Position numbers and translations under genes: made by a program. This document shows, one piece after another, positions 1 to 56,497 of a DNA stretch of 56,497 bases. Location: positions 1 to 56,497 of the IMG/VR virus record IMGVR_UViG_3300044535_001837; one strand, given 5' to 3'. The stretch is from a virus (Duplodnaviria; Caudoviricetes). Position 1 is the first letter of the stretch, and every line of letters begins with the position of its first letter. The notes beneath the pieces are model-generated. The model had not been told where the DNA came from. It did no database searches and worked only from the letters and a program-made list of their open reading frames with translations.

Positions 1-2
1 CA

Positions 3-803
3 AACTATACATTAACATATAGCGAAGGAGTAGAAGGGTGGCCATCCTTCTATTCCTTTTATCCTGACATGATGATCGGGATGAACAATTACTTCTATTC
101 ATTTAAGGGAGGTAACTTGTATCGTCATAATGTAAACGAGACTAGGAATAACTTCTATGGTCAGCAGTTTAATTCTACGATTCAGAGTGTGTTTAATGAT
201 GCTCCTCTTGATAATAAGATATTCAAGACCTTAAACTTAGAGGGTAATGAATCTTGGAAAGCAGAGGCTCAGACTGATATACAGACAAATGGATTAGTAG
301 AAAAGCTTTGGTTCGAGAAGAAGGAGAACTCATGGTTTGCATTCATTAGAAGCACAGGTGGTATCCCTGCTAATGCATCTCAGTATCCAACAAGATCTGT
401 TAATGGTATTGGTAGGAGTTCAACTATATCCGGTACAGGTACTGCTGTTCAGATCAACTTCTCTATATCACCTACCCTTGTTTCAATAGGCAGCATTATT
501 AGTGTTGGAGATTACCTATATTATTCTTTACCACCTAGTTACAGTACTCCATTATTATTAGGAAGAGTTACAAATATCCAAGTAGACTATCCAAATAATC
601 TAAATAGAATTACAGTTAACTCAACAATATCAGGGGCAACTATTCCTACTATTCAGAATCCTTACATAATGTACATTAAGAATGCCACTGCAGAATCTAA
701 TGGTCTACTTGGGCACTACTGCGTATTTACTCTTGAGAATAATGATACATTTAAAGTTGAGTTATTTGCAGTAGAATCTGATGTAATGAAAAGTTATCCT
801 TGA
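3..803 (+). CDS. Tail/muzzle-associated structural protein, 5'-partial
   Basis: The frame is open from the window start (NYTLTYSEGVEGWPSFYSFYPD before the Met at 69). The W-x-SFYSF...YSFKGGNLYRH motif resembles the C-terminal part of crAss-like tail stabilisation proteins, and the gene precedes the ejection-protein block. Confidence 0.55.
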   Translation, partial: NYTLTYSEGVEGWPSFYSFYPDMMIGMNNYFYSFKGGNLYRHNVNETRNNFYGQQFNSTIQSVFNDAPLDNKIFKTLNLEGNESWKAEAQTDIQTNGLVEKLWFEKKENSWFAFIRSTGGIPANASQYPTRSVNGIGRSSTISGTGTAVQINFSISPTLVSIGSIISVGDYLYYSLPPSYSTPLLLGRVTNIQVDYPNNLNRITVNSTISGATIPTIQNPYIMYIKNATAESNGLLGHYCVFTLENNDTFKVELFAVESDVMKSYP

Positions 804-810
804 TTTTGAA

Positions 811-818
811 TATCTTTG
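811..818 (+). promoter_or_regulatory. Bacteroidota sigma-A -7 box (TATCTTTG)
   Basis: Matches TAnnTTTG, intergenic, upstream of ORF 858. Confidence 0.6.
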
Positions 819-857
819 TGTAAACGAGTGAACTTTAAGATATAAAATTATTATACT

Positions 858-1664
858 ATGCCAATTTTAGCAACAATCGCAGCAGCTACAGCACTAGCTT
901 CAACTGCATTTACAACAGGCAAGTCTTTTACTTTGGCTTCTAAGCAAAGAAAAATACAAAGAGAAGCTGAGTCTGATGCGGCAAAGGCTATGGCTGAAGC
1001 TCGTAAAAAACTAGAAGTAAACTTCTATGATAATCTATCTATTCTAAAAGAACCATATGAGCGTGAGCGTGAAGCATTAATTGCTGCAGGTGCTGCAGGT
1101 ATTGGTGCTGCTCAAGAAGCTGATCCACGTGGAGCAGCTGCTACAGCAGGAAGAATTCAGTTAGGTGTTCAGCAAGGTCAAAGAGAAATAGCAGGAGCTA
1201 TGGGTCAGGAAATGCTTGGCCTCCAAAAGCTATCTGCAGATGAAGCATCAAGATTACGTGACATGAAAGTTGGCATTGATCTTGGTGAAGTAGAAGGAGC
1301 TCAGTTGAAAGCACGTGATGCACAAGAATCAGCTGCTGCATTTACTCAGCAAGGAATGCAAGGTATTCAAGACTTTGGTGAAAAAGCATACAAGATGGCT
1401 CCATTATTTGATAGCAAAAGTTTAAAGGGATTCCAATCTGAAATAGGTAATTTATCTTTTACACCTGAGGAGTTTACTAAATTTGGTAATGTCGCTGAAC
1501 GTGGAGGATTAGGTCCTCAATTGGAAGGCCCATTTACAAACTTAGACTTTCAGACTGTAGGTAAATTTGACAGAATTCAATTCGAAAATTTTTTAAAGGC
1601 ATTAACTAGACAACAGAAAGATATGCTGTCTAGAAATTTACTAAATCCTTTCAACCCATATTAA
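858..1664 (+). CDS. Putative internal virion/ejection protein 1
   Basis: Ala/Gly/Gln-rich helical protein with a hydrophobic N-terminus; first of three genes of increasing size after the tail genes, the usual podovirus ejection-protein layout. Confidence 0.55.
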   Translation: MPILATIAAATALASTAFTTGKSFTLASKQRKIQREAESDAAKAMAEARKKLEVNFYDNLSILKEPYEREREALIAAGAAGIGAAQEADPRGAAATAGRIQLGVQQGQREIAGAMGQEMLGLQKLSADEASRLRDMKVGIDLGEVEGAQLKARDAQESAAAFTQQGMQGIQDFGEKAYKMAPLFDSKSLKGFQSEIGNLSFTPEEFTKFGNVAERGGLGPQLEGPFTNLDFQTVGKFDRIQFENFLKALTRQQKDMLSRNLLNPFNPY

Positions 1665-1670
1665 TTAATA

Positions 1671-10683: not shown

Positions 10684-11100
10684 TTAGGTGAATCGGATAT
10701 ACTTTAAATCTTTCTGCTGATCAAAGTAAACCATCATCTCATTATCATTGGAGGCTCCCTCTCTTGGGGGCCTTCCTCCATATTTTACTTGACCAACAAG
10801 TGAGAATACTTTACCATATATTATCCCATCATCGCAAGACCATATCAGTACAGGGTTCAGTCTCTTATCAATAAGCTTTGATAGTTTGCTTAATGAAACC
10901 GGCAATGGGTATGCGGTCTTCATTGTCTTGAGTCTGCCCTTCACCTCAGCATAGGCTAATAGGTTCCCTTCTTTATCGAATACTTTATAGTCGATATCAA
11001 GTGGTCCTAGTTTTTGGAATGATCCTTGAAACACATTTACAAATGTGTTGATTGCTCTCTCTTCTCGTTTAAGATCTTGCTCTGTTTCAAAAATCTTCAT
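10684..11100 (-). CDS. PD-(D/E)XK-like nuclease
   Basis: IDY...AEVKGR catalytic-type motif. Confidence 0.55.
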   Translation of the reverse strand: MKIFETEQDLKREERAINTFVNVFQGSFQKLGPLDIDYKVFDKEGNLLAYAEVKGRLKTMKTAYPLPVSLSKLSKLIDKRLNPVLIWSCDDGIIYGKVFSLVGQVKYGGRPPREGASNDNEMMVYFDQQKDLKYIRFT

Positions 11101-34395: not shown

Positions 34396-34470
34396 ATTAT
34401 TCACTTAAAAATAAACAGTAAGAACGGCATCAGTCTTAATTGGTTGGTGCCATTCTTTCTTATAAAGAAT

Positions 34471-34629: not shown

Positions 34630-34640
34630 TTAATAAGATC

Positions 34641-34898
34641 ATGGCATATCAGAAATTACAACAATCAAGAGCCGCTGTTGTCACTAAGAGTGATACTGTA
34701 AACATTCCAAATCCCGGTAACGGACAAGTAGAGGGATGTGTATTATATGTTGGTACAGGAGGAGTATTACGTGTATTGACAGCAGGTGGTGATGACATTA
34801 CTTTCACAAACGTACCAAACGGATTTCTATCTACTTTCCAAGTGATTAGAGTATTCGCTACTGACACAACTGCTAATAACATTATCGCACTTTGGTAG
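34641..34898 (+). CDS. Small virion protein (head-spike base-like)
   Basis: LYVGTGG.LRV....G..ITF..VP.G...V.RV.AT.TTA..I.AL motif. Confidence 0.55.
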   Translation: MAYQKLQQSRAAVVTKSDTVNIPNPGNGQVEGCVLYVGTGGVLRVLTAGGDDITFTNVPNGFLSTFQVIRVFATDTTANNIIALW

Positions 34899-34899
34899 A

Positions 34900-35031
34900 A
34901 TGGCAAAGGTAATAGTAAGTAGCATCTACAAGAAGAAGCATAAGAAGAAGGGCTTGGCTGCTAAGAATTCTACAAGTAGCAATAAGAGTAGCAAGCTTTA
35001 TAAGAAGACTTATAAAGGGCAGGGAAGATGA
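34900..35031 (+). CDS. Basic peptide ending KKTYKGQGR (43 aa, not in the ORF track)
   Basis: MAKVIVSSIYKKKHKKKGLAAKNSTSSNKSSKLYKKTYKGQGR; ATGA-coupled to the holin. Confidence 0.65.
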   Translation: MAKVIVSSIYKKKHKKKGLAAKNSTSSNKSSKLYKKTYKGQGR

Positions 35032-35459
35032 AATATATACAATATCTTTTTGCCTCCTTACTTTTATTATTTGTCCCAATATATGGGCTTCTTGTTGCCG
35101 TTGCTATGGCTATTATCCTTGACACTTTTACAGGAGTATTTAAATCAATAAAACTTCACGGTTTGAAAAGTATTAGAAGTAGAAAGCTTTCTACTATAGT
35201 TAGTAAAATGCTTCTATATGAAGTAACTGTGCTTTTCCTTTTCCTTATGGACAAATATCTTTTAAATGAATTTGTTGTCTTATGGTTCGGGATTGAGTTT
35301 ATGTTTACTAAAATGTGTGCTATAGTTCTTATATTTATAGAACTAGTTTCAGTTAAAGAAAACATAGAGGAAGCTTACAATATCGATATATGGAATATGC
35401 TCAAGCGTTTATTGAGCAGAGCCAAAGAGATTAAGTCTGATATCGATGACTTAAAATAA
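35028..35459 (+). CDS. Holin (phage holin 4-like)
   Basis: Several TM segments; DTFTGV..S and E..SV.ENI motifs. Confidence 0.75.
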   Translation: MKYIQYLFASLLLLFVPIYGLLVAVAMAIILDTFTGVFKSIKLHGLKSIRSRKLSTIVSKMLLYEVTVLFLFLMDKYLLNEFVVLWFGIEFMFTKMCAIVLIFIELVSVKENIEEAYNIDIWNMLKRLLSRAKEIKSDIDDLK

Positions 35460-35469
35460 ACTTGGAATA

Positions 35470-38400: not shown

Positions 38401-39312
38401 AGTGTCACATTAGTAAACTCAGCTGTTACCGGTAAGATCCTTACAGGTCTATCTGTGTCAGGAACAACAATATCATCTACTGACAGTATACTTTCTGCAT
38501 TCGGTAAACTACAAGGTCAAATAAATAATCTTATCGGTGGGCTTAAATATGAAGGGACTTGGAATGCATCTACAAATACTCCAACGATTACATCAGGAGT
38601 AGGTACAGATGGAACATTCTATATTGTCAGTGTTGCAGGAACTACTAATATTGATGGAATTACTGATTGGCAAGTAGGTGATTGGATTGTATTTCATGGT
38701 ACTGCATGGCAGAAGGTTGATAACACTGAATCTGTTGTATCTGTAAATGGATTGACAGGAGCTGTAAATCTTACTACTTCAAATATTTCTGAGGGTACTA
38801 ATTTATACTTTACAAATAGTAGAGCTAGACAAGCAATAAGTTTAACTACTACAGGATCAAGTGGGTCTTCTACATATGACAATGGTACAGGTGTATTGAA
38901 TGTACCTCAGTATACATTAAGTGGATTGGGAGGAGTTCCTACTACAAGAACATTGACTATTAATGGTACTAGCTATGACTTGAGTGCTGATAGATCTTGG
39001 ACAATTGTAGCAGGTATAACAGGCAGTGGTACTACAAACTATATTAGTAAATTTAGTGCTAGTGATACAATTGCAAACAGTTTATTATTTGACAATGGAT
39101 CAGGAGTAGGCTTAGGAACAGCAAGTATTAATACTTCAGCATTGTTTCAGATGGATAGTACTACAAAAGGATTTTTACCTCCACGAATGACAGCTGCTCA
39201 GAGAGGATCTATTAGTTCTCCTGCTGAAGGATTAATAGTTTATCAGACAGATTCGGTAATAGGTTTGTATATTTACAGCAACTCCACGTGGAGATCATTA
39301 ACAATGGTATAA
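35470..39312 (+). CDS. Long tail fibre protein 1
   Basis: Gly/Thr/Ser-rich. A ~150-aa module (YQGTWNA.TNTP...DW..GDW...WQKVDNT) is duplicated, and there are five RT(L/I).(I/V)N...DLSA(N/D)R.W repeats. Confidence 0.85.
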   Translation: MSQISSYPILSNPTLSDLLIGTDVDNLNLTKNFSISSIGDLIGLDYVPYTGALQNVNLGSFNITSSAFIVGGGTSSQFLKANGTLDSTVYVPATRTITINSVGYDLSANRSWDLNTINSLTTTGTSGAATYVGKVLNIPIYQAQGNYITQLSGEATAVGPGNAVVTLDNTAVISKVLTGLNVTGGNVVASDTILQAFGKVQNQINGLVGGVQYQGTWNAATNTPTLQSSVGTKGHYYVVSVPGNTNLNGITDWKLGDWAIYDGTAWQKVDNTDSVISVNGYTGEVILTYSDVGAPPSTRTLTINGVGYDLSANRAWTVGDVRTDNSYANPSWITSLAWSKITSTPTTLAGYGITDGVNTSRTLTINGQSFDLSANRTWSVGTVTSIATSGPITGGPITGSGTIGITQAGASSDGYLSSSDWNAFNNKQEVISVSAPLTFVSGVIGIPQSTATINGYLSSTDWTTFNNKQNALVNPVTGTGTLYTLPMWGGTTSLVNSPLSYGSDSFNFQYNSTTGASVVFSNIGLTPYSYTVTMNNFGSPRSTVHSYTDGIVYHNIAGTQYQRIFANGNTIIGQGLADTGYKLYVEGEVFINSVINAATDPNKYMVWDTGAVKYVTASQMITTLGAVPYTGATANVNLGEFGLTTGYLGFDLTPTNTPVTQGTMYWDDSELTVALNMGTVIQHIGEDVYYNVKNSSGSTIPKGTAVRFAGTDGNSGHILIAPFLADGTYPSTYFMGVTAAAISNGSFGKVVQFGKLEGVNTNSFTSGAILYASTTVAGGFQTTVPVAPNNIVQVAAVLSSANNGKIMVRPTLGSNITQDEGVVITSPVLNQGLFYDSGLWVNKTIASALGYTPANQARTLSVNGTTYDLSANRTWNVGTVTSVNMSVPTGFSIGGNPVTSSGTLALSFSSGYSLPTDASQSNWDVAYNNRITSLNTTPSSGAATLIGNVLTIPVYQEQGNYITALTGEATASGPGSASVTLVNSAVTGKILTGLSVSGTTISSTDSILSAFGKLQGQINNLIGGLKYEGTWNASTNTPTITSGVGTDGTFYIVSVAGTTNIDGITDWQVGDWIVFHGTAWQKVDNTESVVSVNGLTGAVNLTTSNISEGTNLYFTNSRARQAISLTTTGSSGSSTYDNGTGVLNVPQYTLSGLGGVPTTRTLTINGTSYDLSADRSWTIVAGITGSGTTNYISKFSASDTIANSLLFDNGSGVGLGTASINTSALFQMDSTTKGFLPPRMTAAQRGSISSPAEGLIVYQTDSVIGLYIYSNSTWRSLTMV

Positions 39313-39315
39313 GAT

Positions 39316-42300
39316 ATGTCGAATTTAGCAACTATAGTAAACAACATATTAGCTGACAGTGGGATTGATGACATCAGTGTTGTCATTGGATCAGGCACTT
39401 CAGGTTATATACCTGTGTTTACATCTACCGGTAGAACTATTGGAAATAGTATTCTAAATCAAAGTGGAGGTAACTTATTAATTGGAGGGAACATTGCTCT
39501 TCATGCAGGAAACTTTAATTCATATGCTCCTACGCTAACAGGTGTAGGTGCTAGTGGTACTTGGGGTATTAGCATTACAGGTAATGCAGATACAGTTGAT
39601 GGTTACCACATGAATCAAAATTTATTGACTAGTTCAAGTCCTACATTTGCAGGACTTACTTCTAATGGGTCAATATTTGTAAATGGGGTTGGTGTATTTA
39701 CTTCATCTAGTGATCATCAGATTTCTTTAAGAAGTCCGGATGCATGGACAGGGATTGAATTCGATGATTCTCAAAGTGGATTTGACTATATATGGTTCAA
39801 TGGCATTTATCAAACCTTTGCTATTGGTGGAGGAGGAGCTAGTGTATTAGGGAAGAAACTTCACATTGATGGAGGGACAACTATTGGATCTAATTATGAT
39901 TCTACATCTGCTCCTAGTAATGGATTAAATGTTGAAGGAGCTATACAACAAGCAGGTAACCAAGTTCTTCATGCAGGAAATTTCAACTCTTATGCACCTA
40001 CCTTAACAGGTGGAGGAGCAAGTGGTACATGGGGTATTAGTATTACAGGTAATGCAAATACAGCAACTAACTTAAGTAATAGTTGGACTAATTGGAATTC
40101 AGTAGGAGGTATTGGTAGCGTTGTAGGAATGTTAGCATGGAAAAACTATGGTAATAATCATGTTATTTTTGATGCTTCTAACTCTACTTCACCAAGTGGT
40201 AGCGGTGTTAATAGTTCAAATCCTGATGTTACATGGTCAGCAAGTTATCCAACTTTAATGGGATGGAATGGATCATCTACATACGGAGTTCGTGTTGATA
40301 GTGCAAGATATTCAGATTTTGTTGGTGGATTTAGTGCAGCTACTTTTTATAGAAGTCTTGGGTTTGGTTCAGGTTATCCAAGTTGGAATTTGAATACAGT
40401 AGATCCTGATAGATCAGGATTTACTTATGGTAATGGAGGGCCTTATACAGGTCCATTTATACATATAGGTGCTAGTGGATATGGATTACAGTTTAATGCT
40501 CCTTATGGTGGGGATGGTTATGGGTTAGCATTTAGAACTAGAAATGGAGATACAGGAAGTTGGAACTCTTGGAGATATCCTGCTGTATACGGTGTAAATA
40601 TTAATGGTGGAGGAGCTTTATATGCTACAATTTATTATGATCAAAATGATACAGGATACTATGTTGATCCTGCATCAGGATCTAGAATGAATTCTATAAC
40701 CTATGACAATCTTTATTTTTCAGCAGATTCTACTTATGGGTTCTTAGGAAGAAACGTATACGCTGATACAGTAAATGGTAGAGGTTCGGATCCATTAGAA
40801 CTTAACTATTACGATGGTGGAGAGGTACACATTGGATCAGGTGGCTCAAAAGTTCTTAGATCGGGAACATTTTATTCTCCAATATTTTATGATTCTCAAG
40901 ATACTTATTATTATTTAGATCCTAACTCAACATCTAGAGTCAATGTGTTAGGAAGCTTTAGTCTTAGAAATAATTACACTGTAGATGTAGATCATACGTA
41001 TGGTATTTATTTTGATTCAGGAGGATCTAATGGTTATGCAATATATCGTGAAAGCGGTTCTTGGGCTTTTCCTTATCCTGATTTAAGAATTTCATTCCAT
41101 ACAGGAATTAAACTTGGAGCTAATGCTTCTTATAACGGTATAAGATTTTATACAGATACTGACATGGGCACACAAGTTATGTCAGTTAATAATGCATCTG
41201 ATGGAGTTGGGGGAGGTAATGTTTATGTAAATAATACTCTTGTTGCAGGTGACTCTTTAAGAGCTACTATTTTCTACGATTCTAATAATACAGGGTATTA
41301 TGTAGATCCAAGCTCTACATCAAATGATGCTCTTAGGATACAAGGAGGTGCTTTATTTGGGCCTAATCCTACATGGGGACAATATCTTGCAGTTGGTACA
41401 AATGGTCGTTGGTCCGGTTCTTATGCATCTGTTGCTACCACAGATGGAAATTTGCACTTAGATGCTAAAGATGGAAGTAATATTTATTTAGCTTGGTATA
41501 ATGGATCTGATGTAATTGTTGGTGGAGGTATTCAATCTACTATTTATTACGATAGAAATGATACAGGATTTTATGTTAATCCTAATAGTGCTTCAAGATT
41601 AAATATCATATACCCAAACACTAGTTATTTTGGAGTTGATGGTAATAAGGGATATGGTCAAGGGTTTGGAACATACTCATCGTCTCTACATAAGATAGCA
41701 TACATGTCTTTTGATTGGGATTCTAATTACGATACTTATTCAAATCATGGAATCGCTTCCACTAGTCGTTTTGGAGGTTTTTCAGATAGTATGAGTATTA
41801 ACTCATATAATGATATTAATTTAAGAATTGATACTAATGACAATGATTCATCTTCGTATGTAAGATTTCACCATCACACTACAGGAGAAAATACATTTGC
41901 ATACATAGGATACAACCATTGTATTAGTGAATTCCAAATGTTCCTTGCAGGCATGTATTGCACTAGCAGTTATTCAGGATATTGCTACAATGATGGATAT
42001 TATAATGGTGGATATAGTTCATCTGCTTACATGAGAAGTTCTGATTTTTGTCAAATATTTAATACAGGATTCTGTGGATTATATGTAGTTAATTATGGAC
42101 CATCAATAGATTTTGGTACATATAGTTTGATTCAGAGACCTTCTACAGGAGAATGCTTCTATTATGATGGTGGAAGTGGAACTCTTTATATAGGTGGTAA
42201 TATATGTCAAAACTATTATTCTGATTGTAAATACAAGGAAAACATTACAGAGATTGATTCAGCTCTTGATAAGATTGAAGCAATGCGTGGGGTTGAGTTT

Positions 42301-42546
42301 GATTGGAATGAATTAGGTGAAGAAGAAGCATTTAGAAAAGGACATGAGGTTGGAGTGATAGCACAAGAAGTTCAGGCTGTATATCCTCAAGCTGTCAGAG
42401 AAGTTTATAAAGAAAGAGAAGACCATGTAGCAACTGCTCTTGTTGTTGATTATGAAAAGTTCACACCTCTTCTTATTCAATCAATAAAAGAACTTAAGGT
42501 AAAAGTTGACAACATAAAATCTAGATTAGATGCAGGCGGTTTATAA
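39316..42546 (+). CDS. Tail fibre/receptor-binding protein 2 with C-terminal intramolecular chaperone (peptidase S74)
   Basis: 2x LHAGNFNSYAPTLTG.GASGTWGISITGNA and 4x I(Y/F)YD...T..Y..P.S.S repeats; SD..YKENI..I..ALDKI...GVIAQEV...VDY.K..PLLIQSIKEL. Confidence 0.9.
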   Translation: MSNLATIVNNILADSGIDDISVVIGSGTSGYIPVFTSTGRTIGNSILNQSGGNLLIGGNIALHAGNFNSYAPTLTGVGASGTWGISITGNADTVDGYHMNQNLLTSSSPTFAGLTSNGSIFVNGVGVFTSSSDHQISLRSPDAWTGIEFDDSQSGFDYIWFNGIYQTFAIGGGGASVLGKKLHIDGGTTIGSNYDSTSAPSNGLNVEGAIQQAGNQVLHAGNFNSYAPTLTGGGASGTWGISITGNANTATNLSNSWTNWNSVGGIGSVVGMLAWKNYGNNHVIFDASNSTSPSGSGVNSSNPDVTWSASYPTLMGWNGSSTYGVRVDSARYSDFVGGFSAATFYRSLGFGSGYPSWNLNTVDPDRSGFTYGNGGPYTGPFIHIGASGYGLQFNAPYGGDGYGLAFRTRNGDTGSWNSWRYPAVYGVNINGGGALYATIYYDQNDTGYYVDPASGSRMNSITYDNLYFSADSTYGFLGRNVYADTVNGRGSDPLELNYYDGGEVHIGSGGSKVLRSGTFYSPIFYDSQDTYYYLDPNSTSRVNVLGSFSLRNNYTVDVDHTYGIYFDSGGSNGYAIYRESGSWAFPYPDLRISFHTGIKLGANASYNGIRFYTDTDMGTQVMSVNNASDGVGGGNVYVNNTLVAGDSLRATIFYDSNNTGYYVDPSSTSNDALRIQGGALFGPNPTWGQYLAVGTNGRWSGSYASVATTDGNLHLDAKDGSNIYLAWYNGSDVIVGGGIQSTIYYDRNDTGFYVNPNSASRLNIIYPNTSYFGVDGNKGYGQGFGTYSSSLHKIAYMSFDWDSNYDTYSNHGIASTSRFGGFSDSMSINSYNDINLRIDTNDNDSSSYVRFHHHTTGENTFAYIGYNHCISEFQMFLAGMYCTSSYSGYCYNDGYYNGGYSSSAYMRSSDFCQIFNTGFCGLYVVNYGPSIDFGTYSLIQRPSTGECFYYDGGSGTLYIGGNICQNYYSDCKYKENITEIDSALDKIEAMRGVEFDWNELGEEEAFRKGHEVGVIAQEVQAVYPQAVREVYKEREDHVATALVVDYEKFTPLLIQSIKELKVKVDNIKSRLDAGGL

Positions 42547-42859
42547 TTGGAAATTAGGAAGAATAGAAGCTAAGAAAAGCTTTAGAGATAAGTTTGGTAA
42601 CGTAAGAGAAAACGTAATCAAATCAGTAGAACTAATTCTTGTAGGCGAGAAAGGTGATGATAGAAAAGAATATACTACTAATGTTTATTTTAACTTGATT
42701 GATCTATCTAATTTTAAAGATGCATCAACACTTTCAAAAGAGGAAGTACTTCAATGGGCACTTGAAAAAATTGATCCTAAAGAGAAACAGTATATTGAAA
42801 GAATTGTTAAATTACAGCTCAATGAAGAAGAGTCAAAGACTCTAACAATAGAACTATAA
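42530..42859 (+). CDS. Putative fibre-associated chaperone
   Basis: YNWK...F.....LSKEEVLQW; paralogous to 44125-44481. Confidence 0.5.
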   Translation: MQAVYNWKLGRIEAKKSFRDKFGNVRENVIKSVELILVGEKGDDRKEYTTNVYFNLIDLSNFKDASTLSKEEVLQWALEKIDPKEKQYIERIVKLQLNEEESKTLTIEL

Positions 42860-42868
42860 TTTAATAAA

Positions 42869-43747
42869 ATGAACATTCTGCTTGATATCAATGGAGGGCT
42901 TGGCAAGAACATAGCCTCAACAGCATTTTGTGCAAGGATAAAAAAGAAATATCCTGAAAGTAAACTGATAGTATTTACATTTTGGAAAGATGCTTTTCTA
43001 AATAATCCTAATGTAGATGTATGTCTTGAAAAAGGAGAGGACAATGACTTCTATGAAAAGTACGTTGAAGGACAAGAGATTTTATTTTTAGTAACTGATC
43101 CGTATTTAATGAATGCCCATATGAATAAAAAGGAGCATTTAATACAGACATGGTTTTCAATGATTGGAGAGGAATACAATGATGAACTTCCTGAACTTTA
43201 TTTTACCAAACAAGAGAAGCAATACTACAATCAGTTTTTTAAGTTTCCAAAAGATGTATTTATAATTCAGGCTAATGGTGGAGGGAAACCTCAGCAGGGA
43301 ATGGATTCATATAATTGGGCTAGAGATATTCCACCTAATTTGGTCCAAAAAATTATTGATAAGTATAGTGAAGATTATTCTGTTGGAGTAATAAGACAAG
43401 GACATCAAATAAAGTATAACAATTGTCTAGATTTCAGAGACAAATGGAGAATGCTTGCAATAGGAATGAAGTCTTCAAATAAGAGACTATTTATAGATAG
43501 TTCTTTTCAGCATGTTGCAGCAGCATTAAATTTACCATCTACAGTTCTTTGGAGCGTAACTGATCCTAAAGTATTTGGGTACAAAATACATGATAACATA
43601 TTAGCAAATCCTCATACTAAATATCAAAAACCTACAGATATTGCAAATAAGTTTAGGTTTGTTGAACCTTTGCAAAATATGCCATATGAAAGTTTTAGCG
43701 AAGTTTTCAACTTTGATTCTATAATCAAATCTATTAATAGACAATGA
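42869..43747 (+). CDS. GT-B glycosyltransferase (GT9/heptosyltransferase-like)
   Basis: GGLGK.I, KKKYPESKLIV, FLNNPNVD, R..P and FIDSSFQHVAAALNLPSTVLW motifs. Confidence 0.8.
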   Translation: MNILLDINGGLGKNIASTAFCARIKKKYPESKLIVFTFWKDAFLNNPNVDVCLEKGEDNDFYEKYVEGQEILFLVTDPYLMNAHMNKKEHLIQTWFSMIGEEYNDELPELYFTKQEKQYYNQFFKFPKDVFIIQANGGGKPQQGMDSYNWARDIPPNLVQKIIDKYSEDYSVGVIRQGHQIKYNNCLDFRDKWRMLAIGMKSSNKRLFIDSSFQHVAAALNLPSTVLWSVTDPKVFGYKIHDNILANPHTKYQKPTDIANKFRFVEPLQNMPYESFSEVFNFDSIIKSINRQ

Positions 43748-44112
43748 TAGTTGAAGTATCAGTTGGTGAATTGCTAGATAAGTGGACGATACTTAAGATT
43801 AAGTCTGAGATGATTTCAGATTGTGGTAAACTTATGAATGTAAAAAAAGAAAGAGATTATCTTTATAAGCAAATCTTAACTATCGATGGGTTGATCAATG
43901 ATGATCTTTGTGAGTATTTGCTAGATACTAATTATAGTCTTTGGGAAGTTGAAGATAGCTTGAGGAGTTTAGAGTCTAAGAAAAAGTTTGATGAATCATT
44001 TATATCTTTGGCTAGAAGTGTTTACAAGCTAAATGATTTAAGAGCAGAGATTAAAAGAAAAATTAATTTAAAATATAAGTCTAACTTTGTAGAAGAAAAA
44101 TCATACATCTAA
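43744..44112 (+). CDS. DUF6165-like protein
   Basis: VSVGELLDK.TIL.IK...N..LW.VED..R...F..LARSVY..ND.R..IK..IN...EEKSY motif. Confidence 0.7.
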   Translation: MIVEVSVGELLDKWTILKIKSEMISDCGKLMNVKKERDYLYKQILTIDGLINDDLCEYLLDTNYSLWEVEDSLRSLESKKKFDESFISLARSVYKLNDLRAEIKRKINLKYKSNFVEEKSYI

Positions 44113-44124
44113 AAATAAAAAAAA

Positions 44125-44481
44125 ATGGTTTACACTTGGAAAGTAACAGGCATGAAGGGAATAGATTTGCCTAATGAGCCAAATACAATTATACAGACTT
44201 ATTGGACAAAAACCGGAACTGATGATCAAGGTAATGAAGGAATATTTACAGGAGCAACTCCTTTTAATCCTGCTGACATTGATCCTGCTAATTTTATTCC
44301 TTACGATCAACTAACAGAAGAGATTGTACTTGGATGGATTCAAGCTGTTGTTGTTGGATCTTATGCAGAACACGTTGATGCTCAGATTCAAAAACAGATT
44401 GATTCTAAAAAAGTTAAAGATGAGCCACTTCCTTGGGCACCTCCTACTCCTCCTCCTACACCTATTGTAACCGCAGAATAA
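44125..44481 (+). CDS. Putative fibre-associated chaperone
   Basis: YTWK...FIPYDQLTEEIVLGWI...LPW motif, common next to phage fibres. Confidence 0.55.
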   Translation: MVYTWKVTGMKGIDLPNEPNTIIQTYWTKTGTDDQGNEGIFTGATPFNPADIDPANFIPYDQLTEEIVLGWIQAVVVGSYAEHVDAQIQKQIDSKKVKDEPLPWAPPTPPPTPIVTAE

Positions 44482-44482
44482 T

Positions 44483-44722
44483 ATGTCAACTATCAACTCA
44501 TACGCTACAGATACTAATGTATCTTATAACGATAAGCTTATTGGGACTGATGCTGAAGACAGCAACAAGACTAAGAACTTTACCATTGGAAGCATTTTAT
44601 CTATGCCACTTCCAAATGTACCTGTATACCCTAACAATGCAGCAGCCATTGCAGCAGGACTAACTGTTGGACGAGTTTATAGAATTACAGGAAGTACAGG
44701 ACAACTAGCGGTTGTATTTTAA
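44483..44722 (+). CDS. Mini-protein sharing the N-terminal domain of fibre 1
   Basis: MSTINSY...DKLIGTD....KTKNFTIGSI versus MSQISSY...DLLIGTD....LTKNFSISSI. Confidence 0.6.
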   Translation: MSTINSYATDTNVSYNDKLIGTDAEDSNKTKNFTIGSILSMPLPNVPVYPNNAAAIAAGLTVGRVYRITGSTGQLAVVF

Positions 44723-44749
44723 ATACATTCCGAAATAAAATTTAATCTA

Positions 44750-44977
44750 ATGGACATAAGAAAAATATCAGTAGGACCTGATTATAAAGGTAGCTCAATG
44801 CATTACATTGTAGGACAAAAAGTTCTTGGTGATACATATGAAATAGAGGCTATCCTTTTTAATGTTGACTTAGGATCAATACGTGTTTATATTAGAAACG
44901 AAAAGAATGAGACTGTAATGTGGAAAGAATTCAACCACAATATGCCTATTTCAATTGAATACAATATAAACTACTAA
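44750..44977 (+). CDS. Conserved hypothetical protein
   Basis: IRKISVG.DYK...MHY.VGQ motif, upstream of the packaging genes. Confidence 0.65.
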   Translation: MDIRKISVGPDYKGSSMHYIVGQKVLGDTYEIEAILFNVDLGSIRVYIRNEKNETVMWKEFNHNMPISIEYNINY

Positions 44978-45540
44978 TGAAATCCCCATTCGATTTTATC
45001 GTTAGACCAATAAATGGTGAGCGATACAATAACACCAAGGAAAGTGGTGGCGTTGAAATAATTGTCAATACATCAGAAGAAGACCATAGGTTCTCCAATA
45101 GATATGCTGAGGTTATTGAGGTCCCCTATGGATATGATGGTCCTATACAAGCAGGTGATATCTTATTGGTTCACCATAATGTGTTTAAGTTCTATAATGA
45201 CATTAGAGGAAGACGTAAGAGTGGGCGTGCATTTTTTAGAGACGATCAGTTTTTTATAGAGCCTGATCAGTTTTTTATGTACAAGCGTAATGGAGAATGG
45301 CATACTTACAATCGATTTTGTTTTGTAAAGCCTATACCGGCAATTGAGAGTTACATCATGAAGCCATTTACTCATGAGCCTCTTATGGGGGAGATGGTGT
45401 ATCCAAATGAATACTTAATTTCACAGGGTATAAAGTCAGGAGATATTGTTTGTTTCAAGCCTGACAGTGAGTATGAGTTTGATGTTGATGGAGAAAAACT
45501 TTATAGGATGTTTGACCATCAAATAACTATGGTGCTATGA
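44977..45540 (+). CDS. Tandem GroES-like protein
   Basis: Two GroES-like halves (FIVRP...AEVIEVP...IQAGD; FVKP...GEMVY...IKSGD.V.F....YEF.VDGEK). Confidence 0.5.
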   Translation: MKSPFDFIVRPINGERYNNTKESGGVEIIVNTSEEDHRFSNRYAEVIEVPYGYDGPIQAGDILLVHHNVFKFYNDIRGRRKSGRAFFRDDQFFIEPDQFFMYKRNGEWHTYNRFCFVKPIPAIESYIMKPFTHEPLMGEMVYPNEYLISQGIKSGDIVCFKPDSEYEFDVDGEKLYRMFDHQITMVL

Positions 45541-45830
45541 GAGATCCTAAGGAAATAAAACTTAAGATAATTGAAGCAGGTCATCAGGCTGTAGAGCAGT
45601 TAATTAAGGTTGCTAAGGAAGCAATTATAAAGCACGAGGATGATGATGAGTTGTCTGCTGACAGATTAAAGAATGCTGCAGCTACAAAGAAGTTAGCCAT
45701 CTTTGATGCGTTTGAGATTCTAAATAGAATAGAGTCTGAACGTGAAGCTCTTGAGATGTTGGATAAAGGAGTGAACAGAACAGAAACCAAACAAGGATTT
45801 GCAGAGCGAAGGTCTATATCGAATCGTTAA
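45537..45830 (+). CDS. Putative terminase small subunit
   Basis: Helical 97-aa ORF directly upstream of, and overlapping, the large subunit. Confidence 0.5.
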   Translation: MRDPKEIKLKIIEAGHQAVEQLIKVAKEAIIKHEDDDELSADRLKNAAATKKLAIFDAFEILNRIESEREALEMLDKGVNRTETKQGFAERRSISNR

Positions 45831-48036
45831 GGACTATGTTCCTCAAAACGCTATCAGTAAAAAGAATGGCGGTAGATCATGGTTATATGGCTATAATGAG
45901 CAATATGACATGGTCGTTATATCTAGGACCGGTGAGATAGGTGATATCATAAATATCTCAGGACTTTATATTGCGTTACCTAAAGCACCTAAAGAGGTAT
46001 ATAAAAGATCAGATAAGACTTCAGAACAATATTGGGAAAGACATGACTTACCTAAAGAGCTGTCAAAGATACAGTCAATCTTCCATTGGAACGAGATGCC
46101 TGCTGAGTTTAAGGACAGGTGGGTAGACTATATTGAGACAGAGTTTGATAGACGTGAGGATGGGATGTGGTTCATGAACAATGGAGAACCAACATACATT
46201 ACAGGATCTCATTACATGTATCTTCAATGGTCAAGCATTGACGTAGGATATGCAGACTACCGTGAAGCAAACAGAATATTCTTTATATTTTGGGAAGCAT
46301 GTAGAGCTGATAGTAGATCCTTTGGTATGATATACCTAAAGATTAGACGTTCAGGATTCTCATTCATGTCATCGTCTGAATGCGTTAACATAGCCACTCT
46401 TGCTCGTGATTCTCGTGTTGGCATCTTATCAAAGACAGGTGCTGATGCTAAGAAGATGTTTACTGATAAAGTGGTACCAATAAATAGTAGACTACCATTC
46501 TTCTTTAGACCTATTATGGATGGTATGGATAAGCCAAAGACTGAGCTTGCGTACCGGGTACCTGCATCAAAGATTACAAAGAAGAACATGGCAACAGCTT
46601 CTGATAATGAAGTAATTGGTCTTGATACTACTATAGATTGGAAGAACACTGAAGAAAACTCTTATGATGGTGAGAAGCTATTGTTCTTAGCACATGACGA
46701 ATCTGCAAAGTGGGTAAAGCCAAATAACATTCTTAACAATTGGAGGGTAACCAAAACCTGTCTTAGAGTTGGTAGCAAGATCATTGGCAAATGCATGATG
46801 GGATCTACCTCTAATGCTCTAAGCAAAGGTGGTGATAACTATAAGAAACTATATGAAGACTCAAATGTACTTCAAAGAAATGCTAATGGTCAAACTAAGA
46901 GCGGTCTATACTCACTGTTTATTCCAATGGAATGGAACATGGAAGGATTCATTGATAGGTATGGTATGCCTGTATTTAGAAAACCTTCTACTCCTATCAT
47001 TGGTGTTGACAACCAAATGATAAAAAACGGTGCTATTGATTATTGGGAAGCTGAGGTTGACTCATTGAAGAATGATGCCGATGCACTCAATGAGTTTTAT
47101 AGACAGTTCCCTAGAACAGAGAGTCATGCTTTCCGTGATGAGAGCAAGTCATCTATATTTAACTTGACAAAGATCTATCAGCAAATAGACTATAATGATT
47201 CAAACATAGAAGGTCAACTAATAACACGTGGATCCTTTCATTGGAGAGATGGTGAGAAGGATGGTAAAGTTATATGGACACCTGATCAACGTGGTAGGTT
47301 TTTGATAAGTTGGTTTCCCCCACCACATATGCAGAACAATGTATCTACAAGGAATGGTGTGAAGTATCCGGGGAATGAACACCTAGGGTCATTCGGATGT
47401 GACCCTTATGATATATCAGCAGTTGTAGGTGGACGTGGATCTAATGGTTCGTTACATGGTATGACTAAGTACCACATGGATGATGCTCCTGTAAATCAAT
47501 TCTTCTTAGAGTATATTGCTAGACCACAAACAGCTGAGATATTCTTTGAGGATGTATTGATGGCATGTGTATTTTATGGAATGCCAATGCTTGCAGAGAA
47601 TAATAAAGCTCGTATATTATATCACTTTAAGAATAGAGGGTATAGAGCATTCTCATTGAATAGACCGGATAGAGTATTGAATAAGCTTAGTAAGACAGAA
47701 CGTGAGCTTGGAGGTATACCAAACTCTTCAGAAGAAGTTAAGCAGGCACATGCATCAGCTATTGAAACTTATATTGAAAAGTTTGTTGGGATTGATTCTA
47801 CAGGATCATATAGACCTACAGATGAAATAGGTAATATGCCATTCACTAGAACATTAGAAGATTGGGCTAAATTTGATATTAATGATAGAACTAAACACGA
47901 TGCTTCAATTAGTTCAGGATTAGCTATAATGGCAAATCAAAAGCACGTATATTTACCTGATAAAAAAGAGTCAAAAATTAGTGTTAGTTTTGCAAGGTAC
48001 ACTAATAGTGGAACAAGAAGTGAGCTTATTAGATGA
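45799..48036 (+). CDS. terL: Terminase large subunit
   Basis: Walker A-like KIRRSGFS, Walker B HDE, GST coupling motif, nuclease GCDPY and HDASISSG; upstream of the portal. The TTG start is uncertain. Confidence 0.85.
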   Translation: MQSEGLYRIVKDYVPQNAISKKNGGRSWLYGYNEQYDMVVISRTGEIGDIINISGLYIALPKAPKEVYKRSDKTSEQYWERHDLPKELSKIQSIFHWNEMPAEFKDRWVDYIETEFDRREDGMWFMNNGEPTYITGSHYMYLQWSSIDVGYADYREANRIFFIFWEACRADSRSFGMIYLKIRRSGFSFMSSSECVNIATLARDSRVGILSKTGADAKKMFTDKVVPINSRLPFFFRPIMDGMDKPKTELAYRVPASKITKKNMATASDNEVIGLDTTIDWKNTEENSYDGEKLLFLAHDESAKWVKPNNILNNWRVTKTCLRVGSKIIGKCMMGSTSNALSKGGDNYKKLYEDSNVLQRNANGQTKSGLYSLFIPMEWNMEGFIDRYGMPVFRKPSTPIIGVDNQMIKNGAIDYWEAEVDSLKNDADALNEFYRQFPRTESHAFRDESKSSIFNLTKIYQQIDYNDSNIEGQLITRGSFHWRDGEKDGKVIWTPDQRGRFLISWFPPPHMQNNVSTRNGVKYPGNEHLGSFGCDPYDISAVVGGRGSNGSLHGMTKYHMDDAPVNQFFLEYIARPQTAEIFFEDVLMACVFYGMPMLAENNKARILYHFKNRGYRAFSLNRPDRVLNKLSKTERELGGIPNSSEEVKQAHASAIETYIEKFVGIDSTGSYRPTDEIGNMPFTRTLEDWAKFDINDRTKHDASISSGLAIMANQKHVYLPDKKESKISVSFARYTNSGTRSELIR

Positions 48037-50468
48037 AAGATGTCGTAGTTAACATATCCGCAACAGGATTCCCAAGCCAATTTGTAACTGATGCAGAAAA
48101 AGCATCTGATGAATTTGGTCTACAGGTTGGTCAAGCAATTCAGTATGAATGGTTTAGAAAGGACGGCAATCAATGTCGTTACTATAACCAATGGAGAGAC
48201 TTTAATCGTCTTCGCCTTTATGCTCGTGGAGAACAATCTGTTCAGAAATATAAGAATGAGTTAGCTATTGATGGTGACTTGTCTTATCTAAATCTTGATT
48301 GGACTCCTGTACCTATTCTCCCAAAGTTTGTAGACATTGTCGTTAATGGCATGAATGACAGACTATTTAAGGTTAAGGCATATGCACAAGATGCAATGTC
48401 TCAGGCTAAGAGAAGTAAATATCAGGACATGATTGAAGGGCAGATGGCTGCCAAAGATGTATTAACTATTATACAAAATGAAACAGGCATTAATCCATTT
48501 ATTATGGAGCCTGATGAATTGCCAAACACTGATGAAGAACTGTCTCTATACATGCAGCTTAATTATAAGCCTGCAATTGAGATAGCTGAAGAAGAAGCAA
48601 TCAATACAATTTTTGATGAGAACCATTACCAAGATACACGTAAGCGTATTGACTATGACTTGACTGTAATTGGTATTGGTGTAGCAAAGCATGAGTTTTT
48701 ACCCGGTGCAGGAGTACAGGTATCTTATGTAGATCCTGCAAACATAGTATATAGCTATACTGAAGATCCTTATTTTCAAGATGTATTCTATTGGGGAGAA
48801 ATAAAGACTCTTCCTATTACTGAGCTTTTAAAGATTGATCCTACTCTTACTCGTGAGCAGATGCAAGAGATCTCTATGTATTCTCAGAGTTGGTATGACT
48901 ATTATAATGTAGCTCAGTTTTATGAGAACAGTTTGTTCTATAGAGATACATGTACTTTGCTATACTTCAATTATAAGACTACAAAGAAGATAGTATATAA
49001 GAAGAAGATTCTTGAAGGTGGATCCTCAAGAATGATTGAGAAGGATGATACATTTAATCCTCCTGTTGAAATGATGGAGGAAGGTCGATTCGAGAAAGTT
49101 GAAAAGACTATTGATGTATGGTATGATGGAGTAATGGTTATGGGCACTAACATCTTGCTTAAGTGGGAGATGGCAGAGAACATGGTTAGACCAAAGTCAG
49201 CATCGCAACATGCATTACCAAACTATGTAGCAGTAGCACCACGTATGTATAAGGGTGTGATTGAGTCATTGGTTAGAAGGATGATTCCTTTTGCTGACTT
49301 GATTCAACTTACTCATTTGAAGCTACAGCAAGTTATTGCTAGAACTGTACCTGATGGTGTATTCATTGATGCAGATGGATTGAATGAGGTTGACTTGGGA
49401 ACAGGTGCAAATTATAATCCTGAGGATGCACTAAGACTATACTTCCAAACAGGTAGTGTTATTGGTCGAAGCTATACTCAAGAAGGTGATTTTAATAATG
49501 CTAGAATTCCTATTCAACAGCTTACATCAAACTCAGGTGCATCTAAAACACAGATGCTATTAGCAAACTACAACCATTATCTTGATATGATTCGATCTGT
49601 AACCGGATTGAATGAAGTTAGAGATGGGTCTACTCCTGATCCAAATGCATTAGTTGGAGTTCAGAAGCTTGCTGCATTAAGTTCTAACACTGCTACAAGA
49701 CATATATTAGAAGGAGGTCTATTTATATATAGATCTCTATCTGAAGCACTAACATATCGTGTTGCTGATATTTTAGAATACGCAGACTTTAAAGATGATT
49801 TTGCCAATAAGATTGGTAAGTACAATGTATCTATACTTAATGAGATTAAGGATCTTTACATTTATGACTTTGGTATCTTTATTGAGATTTCTCCTGATGA
49901 AGAACAAAGAGCACAACTCGAAGCCAATATTCAAATTGCTCTTGCTAAAGGAGACATTAATCTTGAAGATGCAATTGACATCAGAGAAATTAAAAATCTT
50001 AAGCTTGCCAATCAATTATTGAAAGTCAAGAGAGTTAAGAAGCAAGATAGAGAAGAGAAGATGGCTATGCAAAAGCAGGCCATGATTGCTCAACAACAAA
50101 TTGAATCTCAACAAATGGCTTCAGAAGCTGCAGTTCAACAGATACAACTTGAGTCTCAATCTAAGATTCAAATGAAGCAAGCAGAAGTAGCATTTGAAAT
50201 TGAAAAATTAAAAGCCGAAGCTGAGTTAAAGAGAATGCTTATGGCTGAAGAATTTAGATATCAAATGCAAGTTGCCGGTGTTAAAGAAACTGCACTTGTT
50301 GATAGAGATATGATGAAAGAAAAATCTAAGGCTAAACGTATTAGTCAACAAAATACGGAGCAGTCTAAATTGATTAATCAAAGAAAGAATAATCTGCCAC
50401 CATTGAACTTTGAATCCAACGAAGATACTCTAGATGGATTTGATATGGCAGAGTTCGAACCGAGATAA
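48033..50468 (+). CDS. Portal protein (crAss-like size)
   Basis: 811 aa directly after terL; PILPKFVDIV motif and Gln-rich coiled-coil C-terminus. Confidence 0.8.
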   Translation: MKDVVVNISATGFPSQFVTDAEKASDEFGLQVGQAIQYEWFRKDGNQCRYYNQWRDFNRLRLYARGEQSVQKYKNELAIDGDLSYLNLDWTPVPILPKFVDIVVNGMNDRLFKVKAYAQDAMSQAKRSKYQDMIEGQMAAKDVLTIIQNETGINPFIMEPDELPNTDEELSLYMQLNYKPAIEIAEEEAINTIFDENHYQDTRKRIDYDLTVIGIGVAKHEFLPGAGVQVSYVDPANIVYSYTEDPYFQDVFYWGEIKTLPITELLKIDPTLTREQMQEISMYSQSWYDYYNVAQFYENSLFYRDTCTLLYFNYKTTKKIVYKKKILEGGSSRMIEKDDTFNPPVEMMEEGRFEKVEKTIDVWYDGVMVMGTNILLKWEMAENMVRPKSASQHALPNYVAVAPRMYKGVIESLVRRMIPFADLIQLTHLKLQQVIARTVPDGVFIDADGLNEVDLGTGANYNPEDALRLYFQTGSVIGRSYTQEGDFNNARIPIQQLTSNSGASKTQMLLANYNHYLDMIRSVTGLNEVRDGSTPDPNALVGVQKLAALSSNTATRHILEGGLFIYRSLSEALTYRVADILEYADFKDDFANKIGKYNVSILNEIKDLYIYDFGIFIEISPDEEQRAQLEANIQIALAKGDINLEDAIDIREIKNLKLANQLLKVKRVKKQDREEKMAMQKQAMIAQQQIESQQMASEAAVQQIQLESQSKIQMKQAEVAFEIEKLKAEAELKRMLMAEEFRYQMQVAGVKETALVDRDMMKEKSKAKRISQQNTEQSKLINQRKNNLPPLNFESNEDTLDGFDMAEFEPR

Positions 50469-54410: not shown

Positions 54411-54449
54411 GGGGGTGTAATAACACCCTCTTTTTTTTGTTTATATTTG
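54411..54449 (+). terminator. Terminator followed by -7 box TATATTTG (54442-54449)
   Basis: GGGTGT/ACACCC stem plus T8, then TAnnTTTG. Confidence 0.65.
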
Positions 54450-54462
54450 TAAAAAGAGAACG

Positions 54463-55203
54463 ATGATAAACTCAGTAAGAAACACCGTATTGGCAATTCT
54501 GAACAAGAATAATTACGGATATATTTCTCCTTCTGACTTTAACCTGTTTGCCAAGCAGGCTCAGTTAGAAATATTTGAGGAGTACTTTTCTGATTACAAT
54601 AAGATTTTAAATCTAGAGAATAGCAGGGTATCGGGTACTGACTATGCTGATCAAAAGAAAGCTTTAGAGGAAGCAATTGAAACATTTGCAACTACATCCA
54701 CTCTTGCTCAGGTAGCATCAGCATCAAATAGATATTATCTTCCTTCCGTAACTACTACAGGATTTGATTACTTTATGCTTAATAAGGTATTGTGCTATGA
54801 TGCATCAGTATCTCCTAGAGTATATAAGGGTGAAGCTGAGAAGGTTACACATGGTAAGATTACTATGCTAGTAAATTCTAACCTAACTGCTCCTACTGAA
54901 AACTATCCTGCATATACTCAATCAGGAAGTATACTTACTGTTTATCCTTCGACTATTAATTTAGCAAATGAGGTAGAGGCTGTATACTTTAGATACCCTA
55001 AGGATCCAAAGTGGACATACATTACTGTTGGTAATGGTAGTCCGGTATTTGATCAGTCTCAATCTGACTATCAAGATTTTGAGTTACCAATAGAAGATGA
55101 GATCAAATTAGTCAGTAAGATCCTTCAATATGCAGGAATGTCCATACGTGAAATTGAAGCTGTTCAATTTGCAAATCTTGAAGAACAAAAACAATCTGTA
55201 TAA
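54463..55203 (+). CDS. Head-tail adaptor/ring protein
   Basis: F...AQ.EIF, YFRYP.DP.W and FELP motifs; position matches crAss-like ring proteins. Confidence 0.55.
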   Translation: MINSVRNTVLAILNKNNYGYISPSDFNLFAKQAQLEIFEEYFSDYNKILNLENSRVSGTDYADQKKALEEAIETFATTSTLAQVASASNRYYLPSVTTTGFDYFMLNKVLCYDASVSPRVYKGEAEKVTHGKITMLVNSNLTAPTENYPAYTQSGSILTVYPSTINLANEVEAVYFRYPKDPKWTYITVGNGSPVFDQSQSDYQDFELPIEDEIKLVSKILQYAGMSIREIEAVQFANLEEQKQSV

Positions 55204-55205
55204 TC

Positions 55206-56129
55206 ATGACTTATATATCACAGTTACAGTATTATGAAAATGGAGGTCAAACTCCTAGAGATGCCAATTGGGGGTCTTACCAATATGTAAGTCTATACGA
55301 CATAGTTAATAATTTTTTGTTGATGTATTCAGGTAACCATTCCTTGGTTAACAATGAGGAAAGGTATAAGGTATTGTTCCATGCTAAGAGAGCTATACAG
55401 GAACTGAACTACGATGCATTCAAAGAGTTAAAGGTTCTAGAACTAACTGTAGATGATACACTTAGATATGTTCTCCCTTCTGATTATGTCAATTGGGTTA
55501 GAGTAAACCTATACAAGGATGGATACCTAAGACCTTTAACTGAGAACATTCAAGTTCTTTCTGCTAAGGCATACTTGCAGGACCAAACCGGTAAGATTTT
55601 ATTTGATGCTCAAGGAAATGTCTTGTCTCCTGAATACTCTGAGATTGATCTGCAAAGACTAGAAGGTACTAAGAAAAGTATTTACTTGAATCCTCAAAGT
55701 AATTATAATGGGCAAGAAGGGTGGAACTATGATGGTCAGTGGTTTTTCGACTATAGTCTTGGAGAAAGATATGGTCTTAATACAGAGACAGCAAACTTTA
55801 ATCCAACATTCAACATCGACAAAAAATCAGGGGTAATTGTTTTTAACTCAGATATGTATGGTCAATCCGTAATTCTTGAGTATATTTCTGATGGAATGGA
55901 GAACGGCAATGATGCTGCTGTCAGTGTAAATAAGCTTTTTGAAAAGTACATTTACGCTTATATTTCATATGAGATCTTAAACTCCAAGCTTGGTGTTCAA
56001 GAATATGTAGTAGTACGTGCACGTAAAGAGAAGCAGTCTCTTCTTAGAAATGCTAAAATTAGAATTAGTAACATTCATCCGGGAAGACTTTTGATGAACC
56101 TTCGTGGAATGGACAAGTGGTTGAAATAA
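55206..56129 (+). CDS. Second ring/tail tubular protein
   Basis: LPSDYVNWVR and ILEYISDG motifs; position in the module. Confidence 0.55.
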   Translation: MTYISQLQYYENGGQTPRDANWGSYQYVSLYDIVNNFLLMYSGNHSLVNNEERYKVLFHAKRAIQELNYDAFKELKVLELTVDDTLRYVLPSDYVNWVRVNLYKDGYLRPLTENIQVLSAKAYLQDQTGKILFDAQGNVLSPEYSEIDLQRLEGTKKSIYLNPQSNYNGQEGWNYDGQWFFDYSLGERYGLNTETANFNPTFNIDKKSGVIVFNSDMYGQSVILEYISDGMENGNDAAVSVNKLFEKYIYAYISYEILNSKLGVQEYVVVRARKEKQSLLRNAKIRISNIHPGRLLMNLRGMDKWLK

Positions 56130-56130
56130 T

Positions 56131-56497
56131 ATGACTAATATTACACGTAATTTTGTAGCAGGTAGAATGAATAAAGTCGTTGATGAACGGCTTATTCCTA
56201 ATGGTGAATACATTGATGCTCTCAATATTCGCATGGGCTCTACTGAGCAATCCGAAATTGGTGTAGTTGAAAATACTAAAGGTAACGAAAGGCTTACCAC
56301 ATTGAAGTACATTAATGGTACTGCATTAAGTTCTTCTGCTAAATGTATAGGTGCTGTAGAGGATAGTGCTAATGAAGAGATCTATTGGTTTATTCATGAC
56401 TCGAACTTTCCGGTAGGTGCTACAGGTAAGCTTGATATGATTGTATCATTCAATGTTCTTACAGGGATACTAACTTATCATTTGGTCAGCATCAATG
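56131..56497 (+). CDS. Tail stabilisation/muzzle protein, 3'-partial
   Basis: MTNITRNFVAGRMNKVVDERLIPNGEYIDALNIR...G.VENTKGN; the frame is open to the window end. Confidence 0.7.
   Translation, partial: MTNITRNFVAGRMNKVVDERLIPNGEYIDALNIRMGSTEQSEIGVVENTKGNERLTTLKYINGTALSSSAKCIGAVEDSANEEIYWFIHDSNFPVGATGKLDMIVSFNVLTGILTYHLVSIN

Follow-up and report, generated by a model that had tools for sequence, protein, structure and literature searches.

The window analysed here is a single contig of 56,497 bp, the complete IMG/VR record IMGVR_UViG_3300044535_001837, and it comes from a lytic podophage of fresh water with relatives among the phages of Flavobacteriia. We found that the asymmetric 4-mer CCAG, read on either strand (CCAG/CTGG), has been almost completely purged from this DNA. 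Our preferred explanation, to which we give a probability of roughly 0.7, is that the purge reflects avoidance of a host nuclease that reads CCAG, alongside ordinary avoidance of enzymes that cut CGCG and GCGC. An earlier note made from the letters alone (the sequence-only reading) had offered selection against a defence recognising asymmetric CCAG as an alternative; null models, codon pairs, the distribution of the trait across the phage clade and evidence of current selection now make it the best-supported reading.

On the plus strand we counted one CCAG (at 30400) and one CTGG (at 23778), which are the two sites, both in GGCTGG/CCAGCC context, that the sequence-only reading had picked out by eye. 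With both strands pooled, the 2 sites observed compare with 219 expected from base composition, 295 under a first-order model and 292 under a maximal-order Markov model (ratio 0.007), the last amounting to about 146 each for CCAG and CTGG. We also shuffled synonymous codons within each of 77 genes derived from open reading frames (ORFs), 300 times. These free shuffles gave 92.5±7.4 CCAG (lowest 74) and 160.5±9.2 CTGG (lowest 136) against 1 and 1 observed, and the null is conservative because codon usage itself already bears the CCAG bias. In the 3,405 non-coding bases there are 0 sites against about 9 expected. Thus the near-elimination, first claimed against base composition at an estimated G+C content of about 35% (36.6% measured), holds under both the Markov and the codon-shuffle nulls.

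Two palindromes are wholly missing from the window, an absence that the sequence-only reading had overlooked: CGCG (0 versus 18 under the Markov model and 13.1 in the shuffles) and GCGC (0 versus 35 and 23.9). A scan of 5-mers in the window found no other eliminated 5-mer. CCGG, CTAG and GATC are common, as had been stated, with 118, 204 and 338 copies on the plus strand. GATC is mildly over-represented: its 338 copies compare with 265±10 in the free shuffle and with 273±6 in a constrained shuffle (12 runs), in which proteins and per-gene codon usage were kept and CCAG, CTGG, CGCG and GCGC were forbidden; this word is eliminated in most relatives. With both strands pooled, two 6-mer palindromes are low in the window, AACGTT (2 versus 15) and CCATGG (6 versus 22). 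Paired counts in what follows are likewise observed versus expected.

The purge is written into the choice of neighbouring codons. Codons of the form xCT precede glycine in 0 of 262 cases (xCA 187, xCC 62, xCG 13), whereas before non-glycine codons they make up 1,602 of 3,295 (49%). CTG never precedes a codon starting with G (0/425), CCA never precedes G (0/163) and CAG never follows a codon ending in C (0/55). xCC stands before AGN in only 1 of 173 cases, and tryptophan is preceded by a C-ending codon once in 199 cases. The suggestion that synonymous choices avoid the motif, and that tryptophan rarely follows a C-ending codon, is therefore borne out. The purge acts on DNA words and not on proteins: it is seen in context-dependent synonymous codons, on both strands and in non-coding DNA.

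We then considered the window together with 80 IMG/VR loci whose terminases are 76–92% identical to its own, a set of 81 genomes or fragments in which a word was called eliminated at an observed/expected ratio below 0.1 with at least 10 expected. CCAG/CTGG is eliminated in 53 of the 81, more often than any other 4-mer. Ten of the 136 reverse-complement-collapsed 4-mer classes are ever eliminated, and eight of these are palindromic sites of Type II type: GATC (50/81), CATG (22/81), CGCG (19/52), GGCC (19/72), CTAG (16/81), GCGC (5/62), CCGG (2/61) and AGCT (1/81). The others are CCAG and CCCG (2/60). Among individual genomes CCAG falls to 0 versus 271 (G003), 0 versus 225 (G004), 4 versus 373 (G002) and 2 versus 336 (G005), and the first 50 kb of MW202828, a 60.8-kb circular podovirus genome from a freshwater spring, hold 4 versus 252. 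On a FastTree phylogeny of the large terminase (TerL) with 84 rows (54 CCAG-free, 3 low and 27 with CCAG present), the trait requires 14 changes, and well-supported branches force at least 11 of them; on the same tree GATC needs 16, CATG 14, CTAG 11 and GGCC 9. The CCAG purge is gained and lost along the phage tree like the classical Type II sites GATC, CATG, CTAG and GGCC.

Other words are missing elsewhere in the clade and its surroundings. The second asymmetric 4-mer, CCCG/CGGG, is eliminated in L076 (0 versus 13), L077 (0 versus 15) and L107 (0 versus 11). Nine loci that retain CCAG (L019, L020, L024, L029, L045, L048, L049, L060 and L065) have fully eliminated CCAGG/CCTGG (CCWGG), for example with 0 versus 31 in L045. 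CCAGA is absent from L023 (0 versus 13), and CCAGC is low in Cellulophaga phage phi18:3 (3 versus 32).

Selection against CCAG/CTGG is ongoing and not a relic. Twelve phylogenetically independent close pairs of CCAG-free relatives, 83–99.8% identical, were compared using each pair's own substitution spectrum. Their 7,915 differences would have created 179.0 new CCAG/CTGG sites if neutral; 5 sites are present, 4 of which are two inherited sites counted in both members, leaving at most 1 new. The stretch 30001–50000 of the window was also recovered in contigs of four lake metagenome runs, and among the 40 of 482 differences listed none creates a site, against 1.0 expected, a number too small to be informative.

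The two sites left in the window are themselves conserved. The CTGG at 23778–23781 on the plus strand (CCAG on the minus strand) lies inside a small minus-strand ORF at 23666–23875, and the CCAG at 30400–30403, also on the plus strand, lies inside a minus-strand metallophosphatase-like ORF at 30271–31224. They have the 6-mer CCAGCC in common, in inverted orientation and 6.6 kb apart. Synonymous alternatives exist at both, so the site at 30400 is not forced by the protein. Both are found in L124, a strain-level relative with 98% nucleotide identity to the window (CCAG 2 versus 57, CGCG 0, GCGC 0). Across 44 residual sites in 15 near-free genomes, the flanks show no common extension of the motif. 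Orientations are mixed, with no hint of the tolerance for a single orientation that would be expected of Type III evasion, but the sites are few. In L028 (1309–1744, 5 sites within about 450 bp) and L062 (5206–5797, 6 sites within about 600 bp) the residual CCAG/CTGG sites are clustered, and both loci are otherwise CCAG-free. This suggests that the clusters are patches of DNA recently imported from CCAG-bearing phages.

There are modification enzymes that do recognise CCAG. A CCAG-specific methylase, the hp0944 product of Helicobacter pylori A45, has been shown by knockout, and Thermacetogenium phaeum has a CCAG methylation motif (PMC10689673). In the lactococcal 936-type phage Phi15 the orphan methylase M.Phi15I was assigned CC(6m)AG, and the methylases of its relatives CY(6m)AG (PMC4190342). 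As far as the consulted parts of these papers go, M.Phi15I and the hp0944 product protect the site by methylation, whereas the window phage, with no detectable methylase, removes it; their organisms (Lactococcus, Helicobacter) are unrelated to a lake phage of presumed Bacteroidota hosts. An orphan CCAG methylase in a phage implies a CCAG-reading restriction activity to evade.

Avoidance of the same word has a precedent in the halovirus Hardycor1, where CCAG has odds of 0.11 and is avoided together with CAGC and CATC, which its authors ascribe to evasion of restriction-modification (PMC7911831). Like the window, Hardycor1 strongly avoids non-palindromic tetramers including CCAG beside absent palindromes. 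It is a single archaeal virus with a G+C content of 67.8%, where CCAG has two asymmetric companions and is not the most strongly avoided of the three; unlike it, the window reaches a ratio of 0.007, and the trait is clade-wide, recurrent and under current selection. No published case of clade-wide CCAG avoidance came up in literature searches, made without REBASE or paper supplements. The window also resembles cases in the consulted part of a survey of restriction-site avoidance (PMC6286503), in which short words are eliminated or nearly so in non-temperate double-stranded DNA phages without methylases of their own. As in those cases, palindromes of orthodox Type II enzymes are lost alongside (CGCG and GCGC here; GATC, CATG, CTAG and GGCC in relatives). 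Unlike them, as far as that part goes, the main word purged from the window is an asymmetric 4-mer without a cognate nuclease found in print.

In the mechanism that we propose, a sequence-specific host nuclease would select against CCAG/CTGG, CGCG and GCGC in phage DNA. The agent would be a host restriction system, and we infer that its nuclease recognises CCAG as a bare 4-mer, whichever way it is oriented. The system may be an asymmetric orthodox Type II or IIS enzyme, or a Type III system with a CC(m6A)G Mod; sequence cannot tell these apart. By analogy with the known CCAG methylases, which methylate the A-bearing strand alone, a Type III-like system would be suited, and the general tendency of phages to avoid the sites of orthodox Type II systems would point away from Type III. 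More tentatively, CCAG is possibly targeted by a sequence-reading defence that is very common in lake Bacteroidota yet uncharacterised, either a new restriction specificity (perhaps Type III-like, with a CC(m6A)G Mod) or something other than classical restriction-modification.

Several observations weigh against avoidance of a CCAG-reading host nuclease. The four closest relatives of the window, L001–L004 (terminase identity 90–92%, nucleotide identity 80–82%), keep CCAG at 0.77–0.84 of expectation. The purge is concentrated in one subclade and thins with distance. Neither of two cultured relatives is CCAG-free (phi18:3, 132 versus 181; elemoA, 153 versus 182), and among more distant TerL relatives in metagenome-assembled genomes (MAGs) only 1 of 17 is. 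These MAGs are mostly labelled Bacteroidota, and the sole CCAG-free case sits in a probably misbinned contig. None of 13 unrelated phages with the accessory GP88 gene (29–82% identical, seven of them at 74–82%) is CCAG-free; one unrelated phage fragment bearing this gene, L130, lacks CGCG (0 versus 14) and GCGC (0 versus 17) but holds 25 CCAG versus 39. A literature search, made without REBASE or paper supplements, returned no restriction endonuclease recognising CCAG. An asymmetric 4-mer is an unusual target, since Rusinov et al. 2018, in the part of their survey of phages with known hosts that was consulted, found avoidance mainly at orthodox Type II sites, at none of Type I or IIG and rarely at those of Type III (PMC6286503). 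Finally, the two inverted CCAGCC sites that persist in the window and in L124 are ones that a simple CCAG-cutting enzyme should not tolerate.

No phage gene was found that tracks the trait. Each core gene present in at least 3 of 5 CCAG-free genomes recurs in one or more CCAG-retaining relatives whose sequence spans the region; for three of these genes the only such relative was G006, an intermediate genome without CCWGG that holds 180 CCAG versus 296. The methyltransferase families PF02086, PF01555 and PF00145 were each found in 0 of 5 CCAG-free genomes (the window and G002–G005, three of them complete) and in 0 of 5 partial CCAG-retaining genomes, and there was no methylase among the 10 scanned of 17 ORFs specific to G001. 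Because the phages have no DNA methyltransferase of these three main Pfam families, site elimination, not self-methylation, appears to be their anti-restriction strategy. The tail-fibre gene of the window (39316–42546) is only 29–32% identical to those of G001, G002 or G005, whereas the structural genes beside it are 84–93% identical to those of G001. A divergent tail fibre among conserved neighbours would fit different hosts.

An alternative is that the phages avoid a nuclease of their own. The clade would carry a CCAG-cutting enzyme, for example one that degrades the DNA of hosts or competitors, and lineages that lose or retarget it would regain CCAG. This would suit the concentration of the purge in one subclade, its absence from unrelated phages with an accessory gene in common and the lack of a self-protecting methylase. 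There is also a candidate, a small PD-(D/E)XK endonuclease-like protein (PF24579) encoded at 10684–11100, whose gene is kept in all four of the CCAG-free genomes G002–G005 and, by tblastn, in MW202828. However, G006 carries this gene yet keeps CCAG at 180 versus 296, and no core gene is exclusive to CCAG-free genomes. A single nuclease cannot explain up to seven words purged in one genome (G003), and on the tree CCAG behaves like GATC and CATG. We consider self-avoidance improbable.

CRISPR systems are common in Bacteroidota, and CCAG might be the protospacer-adjacent motif (PAM) of a CRISPR-Cas system widespread in the hosts, such that removing every PAM would prevent targeting on either strand. 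The motif is short and asymmetric and is removed in both orientations, as a PAM would require. We know of no PAM of sequence CCAG, though, and PAM depletion in phages of CRISPR hosts is reportedly partial, not total. The purge further co-occurs with total loss of classical restriction palindromes in the same all-or-none, labile pattern, and we regard a PAM as a still more doubtful explanation.

The sequence-only reading had favoured a mutational origin. In E. coli, very-short-patch repair by Vsr together with Dcm resolves T:G mismatches preferentially to CCWGG and depletes CTAG. By that proposal a host would combine a CCGG C5-methyltransferase with a cognate Vsr, and its repair of T:G mismatches would turn CTGG/CCAG into CCGG. 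CCGG is indeed the most enriched of the 136 collapsed 4-mers in the window (236 versus 113, both strands, Markov), so the enrichment itself stands. It is mostly a by-product of the CCAG/CTGG ban, with no consistent enrichment across CCAG-free relatives. The constrained shuffle raises CCGG from 62.9±5.3 in the free shuffle to 99.8±6.5 (range 88–112) against 118 in the window. About two-thirds of the excess thus follows from the ban by arithmetic, while the window stays slightly above the constrained shuffle by a residue of about 18 unexplained sites. We infer that the excess is mostly passive: NCT-GGN and similar codon pairs would be replaced by NCC-, NCA- or NCG-GGN, which would raise CCGG.

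The fate of lost sites also speaks against the repair model. At 273 homologous positions where L001–L004 carry CCAG/CTGG (the same site may count in several of the four), the window has TTGG at 56, CAGG at 52, CCTG at 37 and CCGG at only 35 (13%), followed by CCAA (13), TCAG (12), TCAA (12) and various other words. Most outcomes are of the T-to-A or C-to-T type, with T-to-A transversions no rarer than transitions. The median observed/expected ratio of CCGG is 1.18 in CCAG-free and 1.14 in other genomes, so that no enrichment is tied to the trait, and the CCAG-free relatives MW202828 (0 versus 45) and L034 (0 versus 28) have no CCGG at all. Repair bias would not bring 60 kb down to 0 sites, nor would it account for CGCG and GCGC being lost at the same time. 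A weaker point, as the model puts the genes in the host, is that the phages lack both Vsr (PF03852, 0/5) and a C5-methylase (PF00145, 0/5). As far as the source was consulted, Dcm/Vsr in E. coli (PMC4687349) resembles the window in having a pair of neighbouring words, one depleted and one enriched, but the two do not match in the size of the effect, in the spectrum of substitutions or in how relatives behave. The proposal that CTGG is driven to CCGG fails on these data and is very improbable.

Sequencing, base-calling or assembly errors at a modified motif can be dismissed as the cause, since the same purge occurs in dozens of independent IMG/VR contigs and one GenBank genome, lost sites are replaced by several synonymous words and not by one systematic miscall, ORFs are intact and positions 30001–50000 were recovered from four lake metagenome runs.

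The window encodes a GroEL (26668–28272), a large terminase (45799–48036) and a portal protein (48033–50468), besides tail proteins, a primase/helicase, a protein of 2,389 residues, a crAss-type muzzle domain, a Sak annealing protein, two PD-(D/E)XK-like proteins, an amidase and a holin. The terminase shows 77% identity to its counterpart in MW202828, 45% to those of Flavobacterium phages of the genus Elemovirus and 37–39% to those of Cellulophaga phages. Gene order relative to MW202828 and G002 suggests that about 5–6 kb, including a large structural gene, is missing between the window's ends; the window would then be about nine-tenths of a genome of about 61 kb. The ORFs at the ends (3–803 and 56131–56496) both run off the contig, and the CheckV completeness of the record is 54%, to be set against this synteny-based gap.

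A 10-kb stretch of the window was found in at least 24 public runs under 20 study codes (15 lake water, 7 freshwater, 1 aquatic and 1 crustacean metagenome). By megablast, 20 kb of the window had no match among GenBank phages. A tblastn search with its helicase matched only unrelated Gram-positive and other phages and gave no host clue, and its amidase matched only viral clusters in a protein atlas. Two terminase relatives (L108 and L120, 74–75% identity) lie inside a 3.0-Mb Saprospiraceae MAG contig and a 1.05-Mb Aenigmatarchaeota MAG 'chromosome', and CCAG is kept in both; the phages may be integrated or in a carrier state there, or the contigs may be misassembled.

A phage genome that avoids a word totally bears the imprint of a host nuclease. 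In this case it indicates an asymmetric specificity of four bases, CCAG, for which just methylases were found in print. Within a phage clade sampled from many lake metagenomes, CCAG is purged more often than any other word. On this basis we predict CCAG methylation in the uncultured hosts, together with a nuclease that cuts at this word, and the on/off pattern of CCAG among close relatives could mark host switching. An excess of a neighbouring word such as CCGG can arise from a ban and is not in itself a sign of repair bias. If a CCAG defence is indeed common in lake Bacteroidota, it would be the strongest word-level selective force on this widely sampled clade of lake phages, in which CCAG is purged more often than GATC.

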